64,000 nucleotides of DNA from positions 1 to 64,000 of the IMG/VR virus record IMGVR_UViG_3300029882_000012; one strand, given 5' to 3'. Shown piece after piece: positions 4,056 to 42,865 of the stretch (position 1 is the first letter of the stretch; the number at the start of each line of letters is the position of its first letter). The notes beneath the pieces were generated by a model. The model searched no databases, was not told the origin of the DNA, and saw nothing but the letters and a program-made list of their open reading frames with translations. Source of the DNA: a virus. A program made the translations under genes and the position numbers.

Positions 4056-4412
4056 TTAAGATTTATGTGGTTGATAAGTTCCTAAAACACCTTCAGCTTC
4101 CCTTGCTAATGTGCGTTCTTCTAACCAATGCTGTGCCTCTTGAAGATGAGTTATCACCAATGATGTTTCACGGCTCGGCACAAGTGATGATTTATATTTT
4201 AAATCCTCAATCATTACCGATAATAAATGCTCGTGCAATGTGCCTTCACGTTTTTCAACCGCTTCGTCTTTTAGCTTTGAACCTCGCACGAATTTGATTG
4301 AATGCGTTTCGCCTGTTTCTACAATTCCTTGTCCGTCTACTACTTCATAAATTGGTAACTCATAATGAGTTCCTTGTTCGACGGTTTTAAATGCTCTTTT
4401 GTTTGTTGCCAT
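4056..4412 (-). CDS. hypothetical phage protein
   Basis: C-terminal 'ITHLQEAQHWLEERTLAREAEGVLGT' resembles a motif I have seen in small phage proteins but cannot name. Confidence 0.5.
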   Translation of the reverse strand: MATNKRAFKTVEQGTHYELPIYEVVDGQGIVETGETHSIKFVRGSKLKDEAVEKREGTLHEHLLSVMIEDLKYKSSLVPSRETSLVITHLQEAQHWLEERTLAREAEGVLGTYQPHKS

Positions 4413-4435
4413 GGCTATGTTTTGGTAATGTGATT

Positions 4436-4720
4436 TTATATAACTGCGTATAAGTCGGATTCTCTCATTATTAAATATTGGTCTCCCTCAATATCAATTT
4501 CTTGTCCTGAAAACTTCCCGTAAAGAACCCTATCACCAACCTGAACTATTAGTGGTAAAATTGTATTGGTTGTTTCAGAACGTTTGCCGTCCCCTATGGC
4601 TACTACCGTCCCAATGACTGATGATTCTTGGGCTGTTTCTGGAATGTAAATCCCGCTTTTTGTTTTAGTTACAATTTCGTCAGGTTGAACAATTATTCGG
4701 TCATGAAGTGGTTTTATCAT
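4436..4720 (-). CDS. groES: co-chaperonin GroES
   Basis: 94 aa; 'IKPLHDRIIVQP...KTKSGIYIPETAQE...GTVVAIGDG...VGDRVLYGKFSGQEI' is GroES along its whole length. Confidence 0.9.
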   Translation of the reverse strand: MIKPLHDRIIVQPDEIVTKTKSGIYIPETAQESSVIGTVVAIGDGKRSETTNTILPLIVQVGDRVLYGKFSGQEIDIEGDQYLIMRESDLYAVI

Positions 4721-8494: not shown

Positions 8495-8832
8495 TATTTT
8501 ATTTTTAAAGGTTTAATTCTTTTATCAGCGTTCTCAATCCACCCGATTGCCAGCTTATTGATTTTTATATTCCATGTATCATGGTCAATTTCACCGCCTA
8601 TGTACGGAAAAAACTCTTTCTTTCCTATGCCGATTGCCTTTTTAAATTCGTCGTTAACATCAATGTCGGCATACACCACACCATTTTCCTTTCGCAATAT
8701 AGCCATTCCAATAGGTTCATCACTTTCAAAAGTTGCGGTTATTTTGATAGGCGTTATGAATGTTGCTGTCTTAATCAAGACATCATTGTGGGTAAATCCC
8801 TCGATGAACACAACGGAGTTTAAGATTTTCAT
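8494..8832 (-). CDS. hypothetical protein
   Basis: Track start 8883 is TTG; first ATG is at 8832 (MKILNSVV...). Confidence 0.5.
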   Translation of the reverse strand: MKILNSVVFIEGFTHNDVLIKTATFITPIKITATFESDEPIGMAILRKENGVVYADIDVNDEFKKAIGIGKKEFFPYIGGEIDHDTWNIKINKLAIGWIENADKRIKPLKIK

Positions 8833-8948
8833 TAGTGTATTATTTTGAAGATATGAACGATAATAATTGCGGTTACAATGCAAGCCCCAATCACATATAC
8901 ATAGGGCATTATGATTTCTTGTATTTTTCGGATAGTGGTTTCATATTA

Positions 8949-24404: not shown

Positions 24405-25331
24405 TTATCCAAAAGCACAAACTCCACAACTTTGTTTTTCGTGCCCCGTTTCTTCTTCTGTTCTGCCAAATGTTAAATTAAATTGCAATTCATTAATTCC
24501 TTTATCGCTATCACCTAATACACGTCCCCAATGTGCATTCAAATCATTTGCTAATTTTATTGATTTTTTATAGTATTCAGGATAAAAATATTCAATTGCT
24601 AAATAATCATCCTCCTGAAAGTTTTTACATGGTAGGCAATTATTATGTTTAACCACTCTTTCACGTGTGCCTAATTTTTTTCTAACTGTTAATTGACTAT
24701 CTGGATGTAATCTATATAAGTTTGCTATCATAAATTCGCAAAACTTTTTATCATTCCAACGTAGTGTATAAATTTTAGGATACCACCCTATATGTTTTTT
24801 AACTATTGCAAAACACCATTCATTTGTTTTATCAGAAATAGGAAAATACTTTTTAACATCATTTAATTGTATGCTGCGACCGTCAACGTTGTTATCGGTT
24901 TTTTTAGCCATATTTCTAACTCGCTTAATTTCCTCTCTAACGTAACCTACTAAATCAATGGTAATATTATGTTCTTTCATATATTCATGCCACGGTATGA
25001 CCTTTAAAAGCCTTGTACAAGGTGCAATCATGGGATGAGGTATCATTTTTTGTTCATAGAAAAATCTTAGGACAGAATTTCGAGTTATTTTTACGTACAC
25101 TTTTTTAAAATTTCTTTTACAAAAGCGTATCAAGTCTTTTACAAAAGCGTATGTATCCGGCGAATGTTCTTCAAAGTGAGCATAAAAAATATGAATAGCT
25201 TTTGGTTTTAAATTTTCAGGCCATTGAGATAACCAAACCGCTAAAGCAGCACTATTGATACCACCGCTAATTCCTAATCCGATTTCTTCTTCAGAGAAAT
25301 CCTCATATTGGATAAACATTTCTTGTTGCAT
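24405..25331 (-). CDS. PP-loop ATP-pyrophosphatase superfamily protein (PAPS reductase/DndC/TilS-like)
   Basis: 'GLGISGGINSAALAVWL' (SGGxxS PP-loop), 'APCTRLLKV', C-terminal 'CGVC'. Confidence 0.7.
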   Translation of the reverse strand: MQQEMFIQYEDFSEEEIGLGISGGINSAALAVWLSQWPENLKPKAIHIFYAHFEEHSPDTYAFVKDLIRFCKRNFKKVYVKITRNSVLRFFYEQKMIPHPMIAPCTRLLKVIPWHEYMKEHNITIDLVGYVREEIKRVRNMAKKTDNNVDGRSIQLNDVKKYFPISDKTNEWCFAIVKKHIGWYPKIYTLRWNDKKFCEFMIANLYRLHPDSQLTVRKKLGTRERVVKHNNCLPCKNFQEDDYLAIEYFYPEYYKKSIKLANDLNAHWGRVLGDSDKGINELQFNLTFGRTEEETGHEKQSCGVCAFG

Positions 25332-25363
25332 AATGTGAGAGTTTTAATTATTCTCAAATATAC

Positions 25364-25393
25364 AAAAAAGCCACGGTATTTAATCGTGGCTTT
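25364..25393 (-). terminator. Rho-independent terminator (works in both directions)
   Basis: AAAGCCACG/CGTGGCTTT stem with 9-nt loop; minus-strand RNA continues UUUUUUG; about 70 nt past the tmRNA 3' end. Confidence 0.6.
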
Positions 25394-25464
25394 CACTTTT
25401 GAATTACGCTGTCTGTCGTTCCTCTTTTTTCGTCTACGTTCTCGAGCCTCTATGGCGGTTTATG

Positions 25465-25775
25465 TGGAGGTGGAGAGGGTCGAACTCTCGTCCAGTCGTG
25501 TCAGTTTGATTAATAAGTTTGTTACATGCTTTTAGTACTAATTAGGGCTTCCCGGCATTAACCGTTCAGACATCCACCAATCCATTTTACAGTTGGATAA
25601 CTGTCAATTTGTATTAAGCTACCGCTTTAACCTGATTGAACATAGATACTACTTTAGCACCTGATGTTCCAACTATTGAGTTGTCGATTATTGTTTGATA
25701 CACATTTACAAGTATAGTATCATTCTTGGCGTGTTATTAATTACTTTAATCACCCTGTCAATTCCAAGCACCCCC
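25465..25775 (-). ncRNA. ssrA: transfer-messenger RNA (tmRNA), 311 nt
   Basis: 5' GGGGGUGCUUGGAAUUGACAGGG; 3' GGACGAGAGUUCGACCCUCUCCACCUCCA; 7-bp acceptor with G3:U; T-arm; tag frame 25614-25670 -> GTSGAKVVSMFNQVKAVA*. Confidence 0.85.
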
Positions 25776-25785
25776 ATTTTTTTAA

Positions 25786-25793
25786 CAAATATA
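25786..25793 (-). promoter_or_regulatory. -7 box TATATTTG upstream of the tmRNA
   Basis: Minus strand reads TTATTATATTTG-TTAAAAAAT-GGGGG; matches the Bacteroidota TAnnTTTG motif 10 nt before the mature 5' end. Confidence 0.4.
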
Positions 25794-26220: not shown

Positions 26221-27759
26221 TTAAAAAGGTGCATCCCTTTCAATGGATTGTAAAAGGTTGCCATTTAAGAAGTCTAAAACCAATGGATGATCTGACAGTC
26301 TCATTAAACTACCCTTAAATTTCACAGGCACTTTGCATCTCATGCCCTCACGATTTTTAGCTACAATCAAAAAGGCGACATCCTTAAAATCTGTAATTTT
26401 TAATTGAAATTGAGAACAATTAATTTCCTGTAATGTGTCTAAAACATCTTCCATGTAGTCGGGTCGCCATATCAATATGATGTTATCGGCATCATGCTCT
26501 ATTGCCTTACATTCTCTCGTCATACCTAACGTTGGAATTCCGTGTTTTGCCTTTCTCGGGTCATCATTAAGCTGTGCTAACTCAATTATTGTAATGCCGT
26601 ACTTTTTGGCACAAGCCTTAACCCTACGGCTATTATCGGCTAATTGAAGTTCACGTGTGTTGTTAATTCTCATCAATGATGGGTCGCCTTTCATTAGTTG
26701 CACCGTATCAATGACAATCTTTTGTACCCCATATTTTTCAACCAAATCGGCAACGCTAAATTCAAATTCATTGATTGTGATCCCCCCATCGCAATCATCA
26801 ATATATATTTGGGCTTGCTCATACATATTCAAATAATGTTCGTATCGATTCTTTTCAATTTCATTGAATGTTTTGAGCGAAATTATATCTTTATCAATGC
26901 TTGAAATGTTAGCCATTAGCCTGATAGAATACTTCAATGATGACATTTCTAAGTTAAAAACGGCAACGGGTGTTTGCTTTTCTTTCAAATATATTTCGCC
27001 TTTTTCGTTCCAATCAAAACAGCAATTAACCACTTCAGAACACGCTAATGCGGATTTACCAACGCTTGTGGATGCTTCGATCAATCTAACATCACCGGGG
27101 GCATCTCCTTTTAGAATGTAATCCAAACCACGTATTCCAGTACCGGGGCCGACTAAGCCATCGTTCCGTTTCTTTAAAAGGTCATCCCGTAGTTCTTGGG
27201 TTAGATATTTACTGTCTTTTGATTTGTTTGAAAAAATGCCTTTTCGTAGGTCACGTACTCCTGTTGTAACCTTATCAATAATGTCAAATACATCTCCTGT
27301 ATCTTGGTAAGCACTTTGAATAGCCTCTGTTGACATTCTAATGACTTCCCTTTGCATGAATTTTTGGTGGACAATCAAAAGGTGAAATTCAATATTCGAG
27401 GCATTGGAAACACGACTTGTTAATTCGGTTAAATAATAACTGCCACCAATTAATTCTAATTCACCCAACCGTTTTAATTCTGAATTTACCGTCATTAAAT
27501 CGATGGGGCGGTTTTGGGTTTTAAGATTTAAGATTGCTTGACAGATTTTTTGATGCTTGTCCACATAGAAAATTCCGCTTTTGACTTTTGCCCAAACCGT
27601 ATCGTTCACCCTTTGCAACATCAATGCACCTAAAATAACTTCTTCGAGGTCAATACTTTGTGGAGGGAGCATCCCAAGTCCTGAAAATGGCGTTGGGGTA
27701 GCGACCCTATTTCTTGGAAGTCGTTTTGCTTGTTGTTCTTTATCGTTTTCAAAAATCAT
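26221..27759 (-). CDS. dnaB: replicative DNA helicase DnaB
   Basis: N-terminal 'PPQSIDLEEVILGALML', Walker A 'EASTSVGKSALA', 512 aa, DnaB-like C-terminal RecA fold. Confidence 0.9.
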   Translation of the reverse strand: MIFENDKEQQAKRLPRNRVATPTPFSGLGMLPPQSIDLEEVILGALMLQRVNDTVWAKVKSGIFYVDKHQKICQAILNLKTQNRPIDLMTVNSELKRLGELELIGGSYYLTELTSRVSNASNIEFHLLIVHQKFMQREVIRMSTEAIQSAYQDTGDVFDIIDKVTTGVRDLRKGIFSNKSKDSKYLTQELRDDLLKKRNDGLVGPGTGIRGLDYILKGDAPGDVRLIEASTSVGKSALACSEVVNCCFDWNEKGEIYLKEKQTPVAVFNLEMSSLKYSIRLMANISSIDKDIISLKTFNEIEKNRYEHYLNMYEQAQIYIDDCDGGITINEFEFSVADLVEKYGVQKIVIDTVQLMKGDPSLMRINNTRELQLADNSRRVKACAKKYGITIIELAQLNDDPRKAKHGIPTLGMTRECKAIEHDADNIILIWRPDYMEDVLDTLQEINCSQFQLKITDFKDVAFLIVAKNREGMRCKVPVKFKGSLMRLSDHPLVLDFLNGNLLQSIERDAPF

Positions 27760-36470: not shown

Positions 36471-36503
36471 TTGTCAATCAAGGCAAATTAAAAAAACGGG
36501 GAA

Positions 36504-36743
36504 ATGGAAACTTCAACAATCAACAACGGCTTAACCGAAATGGAAACTTTAGTAATCAACTATCTTAACGGATGTGATGATTATGATGAAAAACAATACG
36601 CTCACGTTTTGGACATACAGGAAGGAACTAAAATTGAAATGAAATCTTTAAGAGGTGTTTTATCTTCACTTATCCAAAAAGACAAAATTGAATTGCAACA
36701 AGACTTTTTCCGTAGGGGTGACACAATAATCTTTAAACGCTAA
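36504..36743 (+). CDS. hypothetical protein
   Basis: Track ORF with ATG start; first gene of the + cassette. Confidence 0.55.
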   Translation: METSTINNGLTEMETLVINYLNGCDDYDEKQYAHVLDIQEGTKIEMKSLRGVLSSLIQKDKIELQQDFFRRGDTIIFKR

Positions 36744-36751
36744 AAACAAAT

Positions 36752-36773
36752 AGCCCGGTGTAAAAGCCGGGCT
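36752..36773 (+). terminator. hairpin, weak terminator candidate
   Basis: AGCCCGG/CCGGGCT stem with 8-nt loop; poor T-run. Confidence 0.3.
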
Positions 36774-36786
36774 TACTTAAAATATT

Positions 36787-37104
36787 ATGAAATTAACGCT
36801 TACCGCAAAATGGGATGTCAAGGACATAGAATGCGGTTTATATGTAATAAAAAACTCATCAACATTAGGTACTACCGATTTATCCTTTGCTTGTACAGTT
36901 TCTTTTAAAGTCGGGTTCAATGTTGGTGGCGATAAATCATACGGGCTTATAAGTATGTTAACAGATGGCATGTTTATGAAGGTCGGTGATGGCTCAAAAG
37001 AAGCAATAGTAAAATACTTTAATGATGATGATTTTAGGCCATTAAGAAAATCGGAATATATCTCATTAATTAATTCGACAAAGCAGGGTTTTATAGAATA
37101 TTAA
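36787..37104 (+). CDS. hypothetical protein
   Basis: Track ORF with ATG start. Confidence 0.55.
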   Translation: MKLTLTAKWDVKDIECGLYVIKNSSTLGTTDLSFACTVSFKVGFNVGGDKSYGLISMLTDGMFMKVGDGSKEAIVKYFNDDDFRPLRKSEYISLINSTKQGFIEY

Positions 37105-37107
37105 AAC

Positions 37108-37326
37108 GTGTGTAATTGCAATAGAACATCTTCGTTTGATAGTGGCATAGGGATTTATTATTACAAATGTGATAAAAAACCTTTTAAGCAGGTTCAATAT
37201 AAAAGCGCAACGGATGGTGGTATTGTAACAGAATGGCTTTGTAAAACCCACTATAATGCGTTAGTTAAGAATATAAATAGGATCACTTTAAAAACTAAAT
37301 ACAATTTTGAATTAACAACACTCTGA
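37108..37326 (+). CDS. Cys-containing hypothetical protein
   Basis: Track ORF (GTG start); CNC...C...C pattern. Confidence 0.45.
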   Translation: MCNCNRTSSFDSGIGIYYYKCDKKPFKQVQYKSATDGGIVTEWLCKTHYNALVKNINRITLKTKYNFELTTL

Positions 37327-37400
37327 TTTGCCTTGATAAACGTTTCAGGGTCTGTTTTAAGCTGGGTAATACCGGCTTTTGGCAGTAAAGAACAAATAAT

Positions 37401-37592
37401 ATGGCAAGAAGATCAAAATACAAATTCGCATCCCTGGCAGTAAACGACATATTAGTTGTTGAGCCTTTAGATGTTTACGCTATGAAAAATAGCTTACATG
37501 GGTTTAATAAGCGCAATAAAACCAATATCGCATTATCTGATATTGGCGAACCCGATAAGAAAGGTAATTACACCTTTACCCGCATCGCTTAA
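37401..37592 (+). CDS. hypothetical protein
   Basis: Track ORF with ATG start. Confidence 0.5.
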   Translation: MARRSKYKFASLAVNDILVVEPLDVYAMKNSLHGFNKRNKTNIALSDIGEPDKKGNYTFTRIA

Positions 37593-37608
37593 CCAAATAA
37601 CCCCAACC

Positions 37609-37764
37609 ATGGAAACACAGAAAAAGGCTGTCAACCCCCAATCCAAGCAAATCCTTCAATACGACAACCTAGGCAACGTAACAGGTGCATACACTAACCC
37701 CGCTTATGAAGAGTGGGAAAAATTAAACTTAGAAAAAGTAAAAAAAAATGAAATTAAAACTTAA
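37609..37764 (+). CDS. small hypothetical protein (51 aa)
   Basis: ATG at 37609 (METQKKAVNPQ...); the longer track start 37498 overlaps the previous gene. Confidence 0.4.
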   Translation: METQKKAVNPQSKQILQYDNLGNVTGAYTNPAYEEWEKLNLEKVKKNEIKT

Positions 37765-38026
37765 CCTATTTGTAAAGTCTAACGGAAATGTTAGGATAAC
37801 AAAGCGAGATGACGGCGCATATCAAGATGAGATATATTTAAAACTTGAATTGGCATTGCCCGATGCTCTGTTTAAAAGACCCACAATAAATGCAGCGGTT
37901 GATTTAATGGCGGCAGATATTGAACAGTTTATTTTAGATCCCATCATTAAAACAGATTTGCAAAACGCAATTGAAGGTATTGTCGGTGCAGATGTTAAGA
38001 TTACTATTAGCAACCCAGAGCCATGA
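37748..38026 (+). CDS. hypothetical protein
   Basis: Track ORF with ATG start. Confidence 0.5.
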   Translation: MKLKLNLFVKSNGNVRITKRDDGAYQDEIYLKLELALPDALFKRPTINAAVDLMAADIEQFILDPIIKTDLQNAIEGIVGADVKITISNPEP

Positions 38027-38340
38027 CCCGTACCCTAAAAACCATCCTATCAATCCTCGCTGTATGCGGGTTGTTGTATTGTGTAAAATGTCTTAATGAG
38101 CCGCATGAATGGAACGAAACGCAGGCGCATAAAGATAGTTTGTTATGGGTGAAATCGGTTGATAGCGCACGGGTTCAAGATAGCACACATAAGGCAGATA
38201 GCTTATGGGCTGATAGTATTGTTAGCCACGAATTTATATTGCATGATAACGCTGTATTTAATCTTATCACATCCGACACCAAGCACACCTCCTCATGGCT
38301 TATTGGCGGGGATTTGGGGAAAGAAACTTTAACTAAATAA
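38023..38340 (+). CDS. membrane-anchored hypothetical protein
   Basis: N-terminal hydrophobic 'ILSILAVCGLLYCV'; ATGA overlap. Confidence 0.5.
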   Translation: MTRTLKTILSILAVCGLLYCVKCLNEPHEWNETQAHKDSLLWVKSVDSARVQDSTHKADSLWADSIVSHEFILHDNAVFNLITSDTKHTSSWLIGGDLGKETLTK

Positions 38341-38350
38341 ACGATAAAAA

Positions 38351-38572
38351 ATGAAAAATGCAGAGCAGGTATTAGATCACATGATAAGTGAAATGCCTTA
38401 TAAACTATCAAATGAAATTAAACCTTATATTTTAGAGGCTATGCGTATATTTGCCAATGAGGCATGTATTGAACAACGTAAACTATGCCTTGAAAATGTA
38501 TTAGGTATGGATGCCAATTTGGAATACATGCAGGATGATATACTAAAAGCAACTTTAGCAGTAACGCCGTAA
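38351..38572 (+). CDS. hypothetical protein
   Basis: Track ORF with ATG start. Confidence 0.5.
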   Translation: MKNAEQVLDHMISEMPYKLSNEIKPYILEAMRIFANEACIEQRKLCLENVLGMDANLEYMQDDILKATLAVTP

Positions 38573-38626
38573 TTAACCATATCTTTATAAAAACCTTTCG
38601 GCGTATGGGTAGCCGTTAAAAAAAAT

Positions 38627-39106
38627 ATGAGCAATATATTAACAGTAGTAGAGCAATTCATTGAGAAAGAAGTTTCTGCAATTGAAGGAGATTTCACAAA
38701 AGGATTAAGCGCTTTAGTTGGCGTGGCTAAAGAAGCCGATACAATCCTAAACCAGGCAAAGGCGTGGACGCAAAGTTCAGGCGGTCAAGTATTATTAGGC
38801 ATAATTGAGCAAATGCCCGTGGTCGGTGTTTTTGCCGAAGAGGTTGTAAATACAATTTTACCTGATGCGTTAGTGGCCATTGGTGTAATTGAGCAATTCC
38901 CTAACGAAGCAATCACAGATGCTGAAGCGGCAATAGAGGCCGGTATTAAAGCCATATTCGGCAAATCAACATCAGACGAGATAACTTTGGCGTTCAATAG
39001 TATATCAGCATTTATAACTAACAAAATAGCCCCGTTACTTAAAGTAGCAAGCACATTGCAAGCTGCTTTGGCATTGCCACAGGCTGTTTATGCGAGTAGT
39101 AAGTAA
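38627..39106 (+). CDS. Ala-rich hypothetical protein
   Basis: Track ORF with ATG start. Confidence 0.55.
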   Translation: MSNILTVVEQFIEKEVSAIEGDFTKGLSALVGVAKEADTILNQAKAWTQSSGGQVLLGIIEQMPVVGVFAEEVVNTILPDALVAIGVIEQFPNEAITDAEAAIEAGIKAIFGKSTSDEITLAFNSISAFITNKIAPLLKVASTLQAALALPQAVYASSK

Positions 39107-39304
39107 TTGTTTAGCTATGGACTTAACATCCACATTTAGCTAAAGTTTAAAAGATAAAAAAGCAATATGGCGAAATGAGAAAACGCACCCAAAGTATGTG
39201 AGGGAAATATAATCATATAGCTTGCTGCATGACGATGTAAGTGCTGACTTTTTAGGGTTATAAAATTAACCCTATGCAGGTTCAACCCCTGCTATTGCTT
39301 TTTC

Positions 39305-39340
39305 AAACAGCCATATCAAACGGTATGGCTGTTTATTAAA
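39305..39340 (+). terminator. Rho-independent terminator candidate
   Basis: 11-bp stem AAACAGCCATA/TATGGCTGTTT with 8-nt loop, then ATTAAAAAATT. Confidence 0.5.
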
Positions 39341-39350
39341 AAATTAAGAT

Positions 39351-39527
39351 ATGGAAAGAGTAACCGAACAAAAGAAAGCGTGTTTATGGATGATACATCA
39401 CTATATGGACTTAGCAGAGCAATCCTGGGACTTATACGATAACTTAGAAGATTATTATTTAGTATATGACCATTATATGGTTGCAGTTGATTTTTGGGAA
39501 GCTAAATTAGAATTACTTTGCGAATGA
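39351..39527 (+). CDS. small hypothetical protein (58 aa)
   Basis: MERVTEQKKACLWMIHHYMDLAEQSWDLYDN...; ATGA overlap with the HNH gene. Confidence 0.4.
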   Translation: MERVTEQKKACLWMIHHYMDLAEQSWDLYDNLEDYYLVYDHYMVAVDFWEAKLELLCE

Positions 39528-39877
39528 AATTAACAGGATATTCGAGTGCAAAAAAGGGCAGAAGGTTTAAGACGCAAATTCAGCCTAAAATAGAGATTGA
39601 ATATAAATGCTGTTATTGCGAAACAGCATTAAATAAAGGCAACATCAGTAAAGAACATTTTTGGCCTAAAAGGTTAGGCGGTAAAGGGAAGTCATTTAAT
39701 CACGAAAATATACACCCATGTTGTAATATTTGCAATCAAGAGAAAGGCGGTGATACCCCTTTGGATTATATTAAATACCTATATTCTCAAATTGGTAAAG
39801 TTGATGGTATATTATTAGCTACTAAAATTAATAATGTTCAAAATATTTGCGGTGTTGTTTATGAGAAGATTCGTTAA
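39524..39877 (+). CDS. HNH endonuclease
   Basis: 'CCYCETAL...SKEHFWPKRLGG...NIHPCCNICNQEKG'. Confidence 0.8.
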   Translation: MKLTGYSSAKKGRRFKTQIQPKIEIEYKCCYCETALNKGNISKEHFWPKRLGGKGKSFNHENIHPCCNICNQEKGGDTPLDYIKYLYSQIGKVDGILLATKINNVQNICGVVYEKIR

Positions 39878-40151
39878 GGCGCAACAGGTGGATTATTAAC
39901 CACAGTAGTATTATCACCAGTAACAGGAGTCGTATTATCAGGTTTTTTAGCAGTAGTACTACCTCCAAAATAAACGCCAAATATACCACCAAGTATAGTT
40001 CCACCCAAAAGACCTATTATAAGCGTCAGGATCTCTTTTTGAGAGCCCCACATATAAAGTATGTACGCAAGCATCGCAATTGCACCTACGCTCCAAATAT
40101 AGGCTAAGTTAGCCCTTGTTTTGGTATCTGTTATATTTGTTTCGTCTGCCA
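39874..40151 (-). CDS. two-TM membrane protein with Pro-rich tail (holin-like candidate)
   Basis: ATG at 40151 (MADETN...); 'LAYIWSVGAIAMLAYILYMW' and 'LTLIIGLLGGTILGGIFGVYF'. Confidence 0.45.
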
Positions 40152-40750: not shown

Positions 40751-40906
40751 TTACGGAATTATATTACTCGCATTATAGTTAGTCGACGTTTCATCCCAGC
40801 CGTCTAACCAGTCTTTATGTTGTTGCGTGCCTTTAGGATATGGGCAACTCCCACGACCTTTGTTTTCGTTAAAGGCGGCTTGTCCTTCGGTGTATTCCTT
40901 GCTCAT
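40751..40906 (-). CDS. Rmf/CrpP-fold small protein (51 aa)
   Basis: MSKEYTEGQAAFNENKGRGSCPYPKGTQQHKDWLDGWDETS...; aligns with the E. coli RMF core G-x-Q-A-G...CPY...W-L-G-G-W-x-E; ATGA overlap with the endolysin. Confidence 0.5.
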   Translation of the reverse strand: MSKEYTEGQAAFNENKGRGSCPYPKGTQQHKDWLDGWDETSTNYNASNIIP

Positions 40907-41852: not shown

Positions 41853-41968
41853 ACTCAAATATACTACAATTGGTTTAGAATGACAAAATTTACATTTTAT
41901 TTCCTAAAATCAAAAAAGATGTTTAGGTTTGTGGTGTGGCAATAGTGCCATGTAAGCAACCACACTTC

Positions 41969-42865
41969 ATGAAAGAATTTAAAAAATACCAACATCTTGA
42001 GAGATTTGGTACAGACGAAGTCCTGAATATCCATTTAGGCGAAACTTACATTTTTCCTAAAATAGACGGTACAAATGCATCGCTTTGGTGGGATGACGGA
42101 TTGCAAGCTGGATCTCGAACAAGGCAATTAAGTTTAGAAAGTGATAATGCCGGGTTTTACGAATGGGCATTACAGCAAGAGTGCTTTACAAAACTATTTT
42201 CAATATACCCCGATTTTGTATTATATGGTGAGTGGCTTGTGCCTCACTCATTAAAAACCTATCGCAAAGATGCATGGCGTAACTTTTACGTATTTGATGT
42301 AATGGATTATACTTTGGAAATGTATTTACCTTATAATTCATATCAACATATTTTAAATGATATTGGCATCGAATACATACCACCATTATCAATCTGCCAA
42401 AACGGAGACTACGAACGATTCGTAAAGCACTTAGAGGGTAATAATTATCTCATCGAAGATGGGAAAGGTAACGGTGAAGGAATTGTAATTAAAAACTATT
42501 CATTTCAAAACAAGTACGGGCGAACAACATGGGCTAAAATTGTTACTTCAGAATTTAGGGAGAAACACGCTAAAGAAATGGGTGCGCCTAATGCTAACAT
42601 GAAGTCTCCTATTGAACATTTAATAGTTGATGAATATGTAACAGAAGCCTTATGCGAAAAAGTATTAGAAAAGATACGTTTAGATAACGATGGATTTTCA
42701 AGTAAGAACATCCCACAATTGCTAAATACCGTATACCATGATTTAGTTACTGAAGATACGTGGCACTTTGTAAAAAAGCATAAAAATCCGACTATTGATT
42801 TTTCAGCTTTACAGCATTTAACATATATAAAGATTAAATCTAATTTACCTATGATATTTGGTTAG
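41969..42865 (+). CDS. ATP-dependent RNA ligase (Rnl2/PF09414-like nucleotidyltransferase)
   Basis: Motif I 'PKIDGTN', motif IV 'GEGIVIK', 'WAKIV'; ATG at 41969 (track start 41936 is GTG). Confidence 0.7.
   Translation: MKEFKKYQHLERFGTDEVLNIHLGETYIFPKIDGTNASLWWDDGLQAGSRTRQLSLESDNAGFYEWALQQECFTKLFSIYPDFVLYGEWLVPHSLKTYRKDAWRNFYVFDVMDYTLEMYLPYNSYQHILNDIGIEYIPPLSICQNGDYERFVKHLEGNNYLIEDGKGNGEGIVIKNYSFQNKYGRTTWAKIVTSEFREKHAKEMGAPNANMKSPIEHLIVDEYVTEALCEKVLEKIRLDNDGFSSKNIPQLLNTVYHDLVTEDTWHFVKKHKNPTIDFSALQHLTYIKIKSNLPMIFG

Follow-up and report, generated by a model that had tools for sequence, protein, structure and literature searches.

The question raised by the locus described here is whether an uncultured phage encodes a working transfer-messenger RNA (tmRNA, product of the ssrA gene) of its own, and what becomes of the proteins that would receive its long tag. 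The locus lies in the IMG/VR virus record IMGVR_UViG_3300029882_000012, of which positions 1 to 64,000 were analysed. This 64-kb stretch, referred to hereafter as the window, belongs to a contig of about 94 kb, and the negative results on genomic context given below cover the window, about 30 kb of the contig lying outside it. On the grounds of sequence and comparison, we consider it very probable that the locus is a functional, phage-encoded, one-piece tmRNA gene of the Bacteroidota type: all the parts that trans-translation calls for are present, they form a self-contained unit, and this unit is conserved in four unrelated viral contexts.

Identity and anatomy of the tmRNA gene

A first-pass annotation, made from the letters of the DNA alone, had proposed a complete and compact tmRNA gene at this site. 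Its coordinates, strand, and reading of the sequence were confirmed: the gene is full-length and in one piece, runs from 25775 to 25465 on the minus strand, and is 311 nucleotides (nt) long. The annotation had advised a comparison with the Rfam covariance model RF00023, whose curated gathering score is 47 bits; the locus scored 64.3 bits (E 8.7e-23), with the match extending end to end over model positions 1-374, and RF00023 was the sole Rfam family reaching threshold within the window. Furthermore, a search of IMG/VR with the 5′ tRNA-like motif, written as a degenerate pattern, recovered three full-length homologues (on contigs L136, L140, and L149), which are 82-85% identical to the window copy and score 63.8-78.1 bits against the same model, all of them above the gathering score. 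The following parts were recognized in the RNA:

25465..25775, minus strand: predicted mature tmRNA, with G1 at 25775 and the discriminator A at 25465, as delimited by the RF00023 match and by the limits of conservation in the four-copy alignment
25769..25775, minus strand: 5′ strand of the acceptor stem, GGGGGUG (nt 1-7), pairing with CACCUCC at 25466..25472, with 7/7 pairs in all four homologous copies
25729..25757, minus strand: 5′ strand of the P2 helix (nt 19-47), pairing with nt 247-283 (25493..25529) in the RNAalifold consensus
25697..25728, minus strand: pseudoknot PK1 (nt 48-79), with stem 1 CAAG/CUUG and stem 2 GAUAC/GUAUC
25686..25696, minus strand: A-rich linker AAACAAUAAUC, 11 nt, leading from PK1 to the resume codon, an A being present at -4 in each of the four copies
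25580..25604, minus strand: PK2-like pseudoknot (nt 172-196), ACAG/CUGU and AUCCA/UGGAU, inside a 31-nt stretch invariant in the four copies
25530..25579, minus strand: variable segment of about 50 nt, with indels, low conservation, and low Rfam posterior probabilities
25473..25489, minus strand: T arm GAGAG-UUCGACC-CUCUC (nt 287-303), 5 bp

The tRNA-like domain turned out as it had been read at first. The acceptor stem comprises 7 bp, with G:U as the third pair, and is followed by a discriminator A, these being identity elements for the alanyl-tRNA synthetase AlaRS, and its pairs are kept in all four copies. The T arm GAGAG/UUCGACC/CUCUC was also upheld, and one of its pairs, A:U in the window copy, is G:C in the three homologues, which constitutes a compensatory change. 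The first reading had also stated that CCA is not encoded, and indeed the sequence past the acceptor reads A-CAU. This absence is normal for the lineage, since the 3′ end reads ACCA in just 2/39 of the cellular Bacteroidota tmRNA genes examined.

The P2 helix, which closes the pseudoknot and mRNA domain, comprises 23 pairs. Two of these show compensatory changes: G23:C becomes A:U, and another pair occurs as A:U or C:G and is mismatched in the window copy. The first-pass annotation was right as to the presence of this helix, but the pairing it gave, UGAUUAA with UUAAUCA, is one of two registers possible in the middle part of P2, where the register is ambiguous; the consensus fold pairs AAUUAAUA with UAUUAAUC and, with compensatory support, G23-U24-G25 with C-A-C further 3′. 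In PK1, one pair of stem 1 varies between C:G, G:C, and A:U in the four copies, and stem 2 is invariant. Over the four-copy alignment, the 53 proposed pairs, both pseudoknots included, are paired in 99.1% of cases. Four pairs are changed on both sides, one each in P2a, P2c, PK1 stem 1, and the T stem. No double-sided change was obtained when partners were slid by 1-3 columns, and the observed covariation score was reached in 1/500 shuffles.

Resume codon, tag and proposed mode of action

Two features of the messenger part are needed for the reading of the tag:

25614..25685, minus strand: tag frame from GAC to UAA, encoding DNSIVGTSGAKVVSMFNQVKAVA followed by the stop, as placed by the Rfam alignment and by the tmRNA detector ARAGORN, both under relaxed thresholds and after a one-base change
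25638..25669, minus strand: hairpin inside the tag frame (codons 6-16), -13.6 kcal/mol, z -5.59

Read from GAC, the frame has 23 encoded residues, and the tag would be (A)DNSIVGTSGAKVVSMFNQVKAVA, that is, 24 residues with the alanine. The first-pass annotation had started the tag at GGA (25670..25668), in the same frame, for 18 encoded residues; its open frame and its stop were maintained, but the start is more likely GAC, which gives 23 residues and not 18. The GAC codon (25685..25683) lies 11 nt past PK1 and five codons 5′ of GGA. In the E. coli tmRNA, the 11-nt linker is AAAAAAUAGUC, and A86 at position -4 sets the frame four nt downstream (PMC2481249). We regard GAC as the probable resume codon, with some room for doubt, because in the Rfam alignment AAUAAUC-GAC falls, at a high posterior probability, under the consensus AAUAAUU-GCA, because ARAGORN picks GAC whenever the gene is detected, and because its distance from PK1 equals that in E. 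coli and an A stands at -4 in 4/4 copies. The alternative GGA is disfavoured since 2 of its 3 bases sit in the stem of the strong hairpin. It must be said that GGA likewise has an A at -4 (UAGUU-GGA), so that both candidates fit the rule; the invariant AGUUG just 5′ of GGA can be accounted for by its pairing with CAACU, in which it forms the 3′ strand of a small hairpin. Since both codons are in the same frame, the last 18 residues of the tag are identical for either start.

The tags of the homologues are DNFTVGTKEAKVVSMFNQVRAVA (L149), DNSIVGAKGAKVVPMFNREKVAA (L140), and DNSLVGTLGAKVVSMFNRNVSAKLAA (L136). The frame is open in 4/4 copies, with the stop at the same place, and L136 carries an in-frame 9-nt insertion, the tags thus ranging over 23-26 encoded residues. 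A conserved core, (G/E)AKVV(S/P)MFN, and a K or R at -4 were found in all four. The four C-termini (KAVA, RAVA, KVAA, and KLAA, the last being a canonical LAA) resemble the Ala-rich nonpolar ends typical of ssrA tags. The initial remark that this tag is longer than those of the Bacteroidota was borne out, since it greatly exceeds the cellular tags of GE(N/E)NYALAA type, which have 8-10 residues in tmRNAs with the same 5′ motif.

For a gene of this structure, the following mode of action can be proposed. Host RNA polymerase would transcribe the tmRNA from the TAnnTTTG promoter described below, host RNase P and 3′ processing enzymes would trim the transcript, and the host CCA-adding enzyme would add CCA. 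Once charged with alanine by the host AlaRS, the RNA would be delivered by host SmpB and EF-Tu, and ribosomes stalled on broken or stop-less mRNAs would resume at GAC or, less likely, at GGA, append A-DNSIVGTSGAKVVSMFNQVKAVA, terminate, and be released. The benefit for the phage would probably be a working pool of ribosomes while infection or host defence nucleases destroy mRNAs. Degradation of the tagged proteins would be the default expectation, since the tail of the tag is still ssrA-like.

Several observations weigh against the reading of the locus as a functional tmRNA gene. ARAGORN, the other program recommended at the outset, called neither a tRNA nor a tmRNA in the entire window at default settings, and none of the three homologues either, so that 0/4 copies are detected. 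Just one further pseudoknot-like element is visible beyond PK1. Every cell of this PK2-like element pairs in the alignment, and its invariance leaves no covariation. The variable segment occupies the place of PK3 and PK4 of cellular tmRNAs and has no convincing conserved fold. The covariation itself, with four sequences, is supportive but modest and not conclusive. As for the tag, the variable sites of the frame fall on the three codon positions in numbers of 5, 9, and 8 of 24 each, with no third-position enrichment, and the core AKVV(S/P)MFN coincides with the strong hairpin, much of the frame lying in conserved hairpins. The conservation of the frame may therefore owe as much to RNA structure as to the peptide, or more. 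Finally, relatives of the phage were traced through the DnaB-like helicase encoded next to the gene, at 51-65% identity, in one IMG/VR locus and three ENA/Logan loci. In none of them does a tmRNA lie near DnaB, so that the gene is dispensable for this lineage, and synteny yielded no tmRNA homologues.

The first of these points was followed in detail. Under relaxed thresholds, ARAGORN gave a spurious "permuted" call, yet with the same resume site and tag. Detection was not rescued by the addition of CCA, by altering the T loop or T arm, the 5′ D-loop region or the resume codon, or by swapping in a canonical tag. Of the 9 possible single-base changes, 5 in the 3 nt preceding UGGACG, next to the T arm, sufficed for a standard tmRNA call over the same coordinates, with the tag at nt 91-162. 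Since single-base changes rescue the call, the miss is a near-threshold false negative of the heuristic and no argument against a tmRNA. With regard to the pseudoknots, PK2-PK4 on the 3′ side of the frame are typical of tmRNAs but dispensable, and several lineages have them in reduced form. The hairpin inside the frame keeps its pairs, with several pair types at two positions.

The long tag might, alternatively, redirect the tagged proteins towards a protease or adaptor (e.g., Lon or a phage factor) other than that of the host tag GE(N/E)NYALAA, or allow them to escape from degradation. Such a main function would correspond to the altered proteolysis signal suggested in the first-pass annotation, a suggestion that the four tags weaken. 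The 23-26 encoded residues of the tag, compared with 8-10 in those cellular Bacteroidota tmRNAs that share its 5′ motif, the internal motif and the K/R at -4 in 4/4 copies, and the recurrence of long tags on viral contigs would fit such a function, and mycoplasmas with long ssrA tags use Lon in place of ClpXP. The C-termini AVA, AVA, VAA, and LAA are, however, still ssrA-like, the conserved core is also a strong conserved RNA hairpin, the lack of third-position bias gives no sign of peptide-level selection, and none of the copies has an identified protease or adaptor gene beside it. With these points on both sides, redirection of the tagged products seems possible but unlikely.

A second alternative concerns the RNA as a whole, which could act as a decoy that damps trans-translation in the host by competing with the host tmRNA for SmpB, AlaRS, or ribosomes. 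There is a precedent in the tag-less tmRNA-like gene of mycobacteriophage DS6A, which, as the gene in the window, is a phage-borne tmRNA derivative, and which inhibits the cell's own tmRNA upon expression in E. coli (PMC11915505). The reduced pseudoknot domain of the window gene would be in line with a decoy, and so would the lack of a significant SmpB match in the window (tblastn with an approximate E. coli SmpB query). Unlike the DS6A inhibitor, which is devoid of a tag frame, the window gene has retained a frame, a PK1, and a resume context. Kept across the four copies are PK1, a linker with A at -4, and an open frame with a conserved stop and an in-frame indel. A decoy could do without such parts, and we regard this alternative as very unlikely. 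A functional tmRNA thus continues to be the reading that we favour.

Genomic setting and distribution among phages

The surroundings of the gene contain these features:

25786..25793, minus strand: TATATTTG, matching TAnnTTTG, exactly 10 nt 5′ of G1
25364..25394, minus strand: intrinsic terminator with a 10-bp stem, a 9-nt loop, and a U-run, -13.7 kcal/mol, z -4.07
26221..27759, minus strand: upstream neighbour, a DnaB-like replicative helicase (PHROG 19 at 7e-71; Pfam DnaB and DnaB_C)
24405..25331, minus strand: downstream neighbour, a PAPS-reductase-like protein with its start at 25331 (PHROG 424 at 1.7e-16; Pfam PF01507)
25355..25362, minus strand: TATATTTG octamer of the PAPS-reductase-like gene, the same as at the tmRNA gene

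A box 10 nt upstream of the gene and a terminator about 70 nt downstream of it had both been predicted. The former was found as TATATTTG at 25793..25786, and it conforms to TAnnTTTG, which we take to be the -7 box of Bacteroidota promoters; the copy in L140 is also preceded by TATATTTG. The latter was confirmed by folding and begins 70 nt 3′ of the discriminator. A pattern-based scan missed this terminator, whose 9-nt loop exceeds the 8-nt limit of the scan. On the minus strand of the window, TAnnTTTG occurs 46 times, about 29 occurrences being expected from base composition.

The window corresponds to a tailed-phage genome that encodes, besides DnaB, an SbcC-like ATPase, methyltransferases, an exonuclease, a tape measure protein, a baseplate hub protein, and a lysozyme. 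Assemblies of the phage are known from at least three data sources (an ENA contig of 94 kb, a JGI metagenome, and a Logan assembly; the source samples are ENA ERZ27249641, JGI 3300030687, and SRR8556101). The tmRNA locus is 100% identical across them, so these assemblies add no variation to analyse. Many temperate elements integrate into ssrA, and many IMG/VR contigs carry tmRNA 3′ ends, which would speak for host DNA, either a remnant at a prophage junction, an attachment site, or an assembly chimera. Contrary to this, the gene is full-length and internal, lies more than 24 kb from either end of the window, and stands between DnaB and the PAPS-reductase-like gene, in a region of uniform base composition and at a locus identical in three independent assemblies. 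No integrase was identified among the open reading frames scanned or the precomputed Pfam hits, and the exact 3′ 29-mer had zero matches in a collection of 185,579 species, each represented by a single genome. The homologues also lie among phage genes (endolysin in L140 and L149, and a tail-fibre-like protein in L140). The earlier assertions that both ends of the gene are present between flanking phage genes, and that it is not an attachment-site fragment, agree with these data, as both tRNA-like halves, P2, PK1, the tag frame, the box, and the terminator are there. An origin from host DNA appears extremely unlikely.

When the four copies were aligned together with their flanks, identity collapsed directly 5′ of G1 and just past CCACCUCCA-CA. 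In tblastx searches, the flanks of the homologues (7-15 kb per locus) gave no similarity to the window, and among these flanks the sole similarity was a small open reading frame common to L140 and L149. Because identity ends at the gene ends and the flanks are unrelated, the tmRNA is, as judged from these alignments, a discrete unit common to otherwise unrelated viral genomes. An identity of 82-85% amid unrelated neighbourhoods would mean exchange of the RNA gene between phages, or else unusually strong selection. The small open reading frame just mentioned (8549-8836, minus strand, in L140; about 12990-13290 in L149) has about 95 residues, is 43% identical between the two contigs, lies within 700 bp of the tmRNA gene in both, and is absent from the window and from L136.

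Other searches delimited the family. Within IMG/VR, the exact 3′ 25-mer had zero matches, a generic 3′ pattern yielded 120 loci with no close relative among them, and neither a central pattern nor a back-translated tag pattern added anything to L136, L140, and L149. A metagenome scan with a two-anchor pattern gave just the marine 326-nt tmRNAs with the tag GNTSYAMAA and no copy of the window family, and a blastn search of the locus against 50,697 GenBank phage records gave no match.

A bolder interpretation would join these findings, the gene being a mobile, self-contained cassette that moves among unrelated Bacteroidota phages and whose long tag, with its core AKVV(S/P)MFN and basic residue at -4, serves as an infection-specific signal. 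The tag might then direct what stalled ribosomes have produced towards another protease or adaptor. Alternatively, the cassette might act together with the RMF-like (ribosome modulation factor) protein and the RNA ligase of the phage, both described below, in countering host nucleases that cut mRNA or tRNA. We hold this combined interpretation to be unlikely, and a functional tmRNA gene shared by unrelated phages is the reading retained here.

Some other genes of the phage may be mentioned. A 51-residue open reading frame at 40751..40906 (minus strand) matches RMF (PF04957) with 31.7 bits against a cut-off of 27.9 bits (E 1.6e-07). A weaker RMF-like open reading frame of 83 residues lies just past the left end of the window, at 20214-20465 of contig L235, which is linked to the window through an identical window protein. 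The presence of a homologue of a ribosome-hibernation factor and of a tmRNA in one phage suggests a wider theme of translation manipulation. A 309-residue protein with the RNA ligase domain PF09414 is encoded at 41936..42865 (plus strand), on the strand opposite to its neighbours and adjoining a gene for a non-specific endonuclease (PF01223), and this ligase could repair RNAs cut by host defence nucleases. Adjacent small genes at about 4056..4720 (minus strand) have precomputed Pfam matches to the Acb2/Tad1 hairpin and to Cpn10/GroES; the Acb2/Tad1 family sequesters anti-phage signalling nucleotides. Finally, a block of small plus-strand genes occupies 36500..39900 in a genome that is almost entirely on the minus strand, the GC skew flips its sign there, and the block might represent an early or regulatory module with divergent transcription.

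Host lineage and comparison with known tmRNAs

The host of the phage is probably a member of the Bacteroidota, and this assignment, which stops short of a genus, is supported by the distribution of the 5′ motif, the affinity of DnaB, and the TAnnTTTG boxes. In a collection with one genome per species, the 22-nt 5′ motif occurs in 77 contigs, about 60 of which are named Bacteroidota, with many Sphingobacterium in addition to Saprospiraceae, Lewinellaceae, Chitinophagales, and Cytophagales. In the majority of these contigs, tmRNAs were called by ARAGORN, with tags such as GENNYALAA, GEENYALAA, and GEDYSYAMAA. The closest cellular DnaB proteins are those of Cyclobacterium and Dyadobacter, at 34% identity. 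Searches of GenBank phage proteins with DnaB and with a DUF2586 protein of the tail region gave distant matches to uncultured faecal phages only, and for this reason cultured phages provide no clue to the host.

The window gene shares with the cellular Bacteroidota tmRNAs the 5′ motif GGGGNUGNNNGGAAUUGACAGG, the G3:U pair, the discriminator A, the GGACG-T arm, and the P2 segment AAGCAUGUA, and CCA is mostly not encoded in them either. In comparison with the tmRNAs of Sphingobacterium, the 3′ 69 nt are 74-77% identical, and the tRNA-like domain and the ends of P2 are kept. On the other hand, the phage-borne gene is short, as had been pointed out from the start: its 311 nt compare with 365-403 nt in the cellular tmRNAs with the same 5′ motif for which both ends were locatable. 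According to the alignment, PK1 is about 24 nt shorter in the phage, and the pseudoknot domain is about half that of cellular tmRNAs, with one further pseudoknot-like element where these typically have three. The tag also differs, with 23 encoded residues starting with D in the phage and 8-10 starting with G in the cellular Bacteroidota.

Long tags were also found elsewhere among viral contigs. ARAGORN called 93 tmRNAs on the IMG/VR contigs L005-L124, fetched with the generic tmRNA 3′ pattern, and 16 of the 93 have tags of 20-27 residues, for example ANAQIEANMNKVFSLLREEVAVAA (322 nt) and DVELSTMTFEDAMAFVGADYAVAA. The long tags listed end mostly in AVAA, VAA, or LAA, and some of the genes have just about 320 nt. 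These tmRNAs are comparable to the window gene in compactness, tag length, and occurrence on viral contigs, either inside a phage or in a host flank, but they have no similarity to it outside the tRNA-like domain, and their tag sequences are different. Long tags therefore seem to recur among the tmRNAs of viral contigs, and the gene in the window is unique in neither its long tag nor its compactness.

Another group of short tmRNAs, of about 326 nt and with the tag GNTSYAMAA, was observed in L131, L139, and L142 (IMG/VR) and in L227-L234 (metagenomes, including a TARA contig). It is widespread on marine contigs, some of them classed as viral, and its copies may be phage-borne or belong to host flanks. 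This group has in common with the window family the 5′ motif and the shortness, the first 33 nt being 82% and about 63 nt at the 3′ end about 72% identical. Unlike the window family, it carries a canonical tag of 9 residues, its middle part is unrelated, and most of its members are detected by ARAGORN.

Phage tmRNAs as such are well documented. Mycobacteriophages of cluster C encode a complete tmRNA. Complete tmRNAs have also been described in huge phages (PMC7162821) and in Streptomyces phages of cluster BE (PMC11237712), and an ARAGORN survey found tmRNA genes in 402/18,146 phage genomes (2.3%), that of the marine myophage Melnitz being in two pieces (PMC9004378). The role proposed for them is the maintenance of the hijacked translation machinery (PMC9004378, PMC7162821, PMC11237712). 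The survey figure of 2.3% (PMC9004378), and ARAGORN-based counts in general, may be too low, because the detector on which they rest misses all four copies of the family described here. The finding leaves the understanding of trans-translation unchanged. It adds a tmRNA sequence family from uncultured phages that probably infect Bacteroidota, and this family, being small and clean, is a usable test case for why phage tmRNAs often carry long tags. As in the Melnitz, cluster BE, and huge-phage cases, the gene is a complete ssrA carried by a phage with no obvious role in integration. In contrast with them, the window family is one-piece, of Bacteroidota type, very compact, and not called by ARAGORN, and it has neither accompanying tRNA genes in the 64 kb nor a blastn match among GenBank phages. 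Altogether, complete phage tmRNAs and long tags were already known, and what appears to be new is a sequence family with no GenBank phage match, invisible to ARAGORN, and present as a cassette in four unrelated viral contexts.

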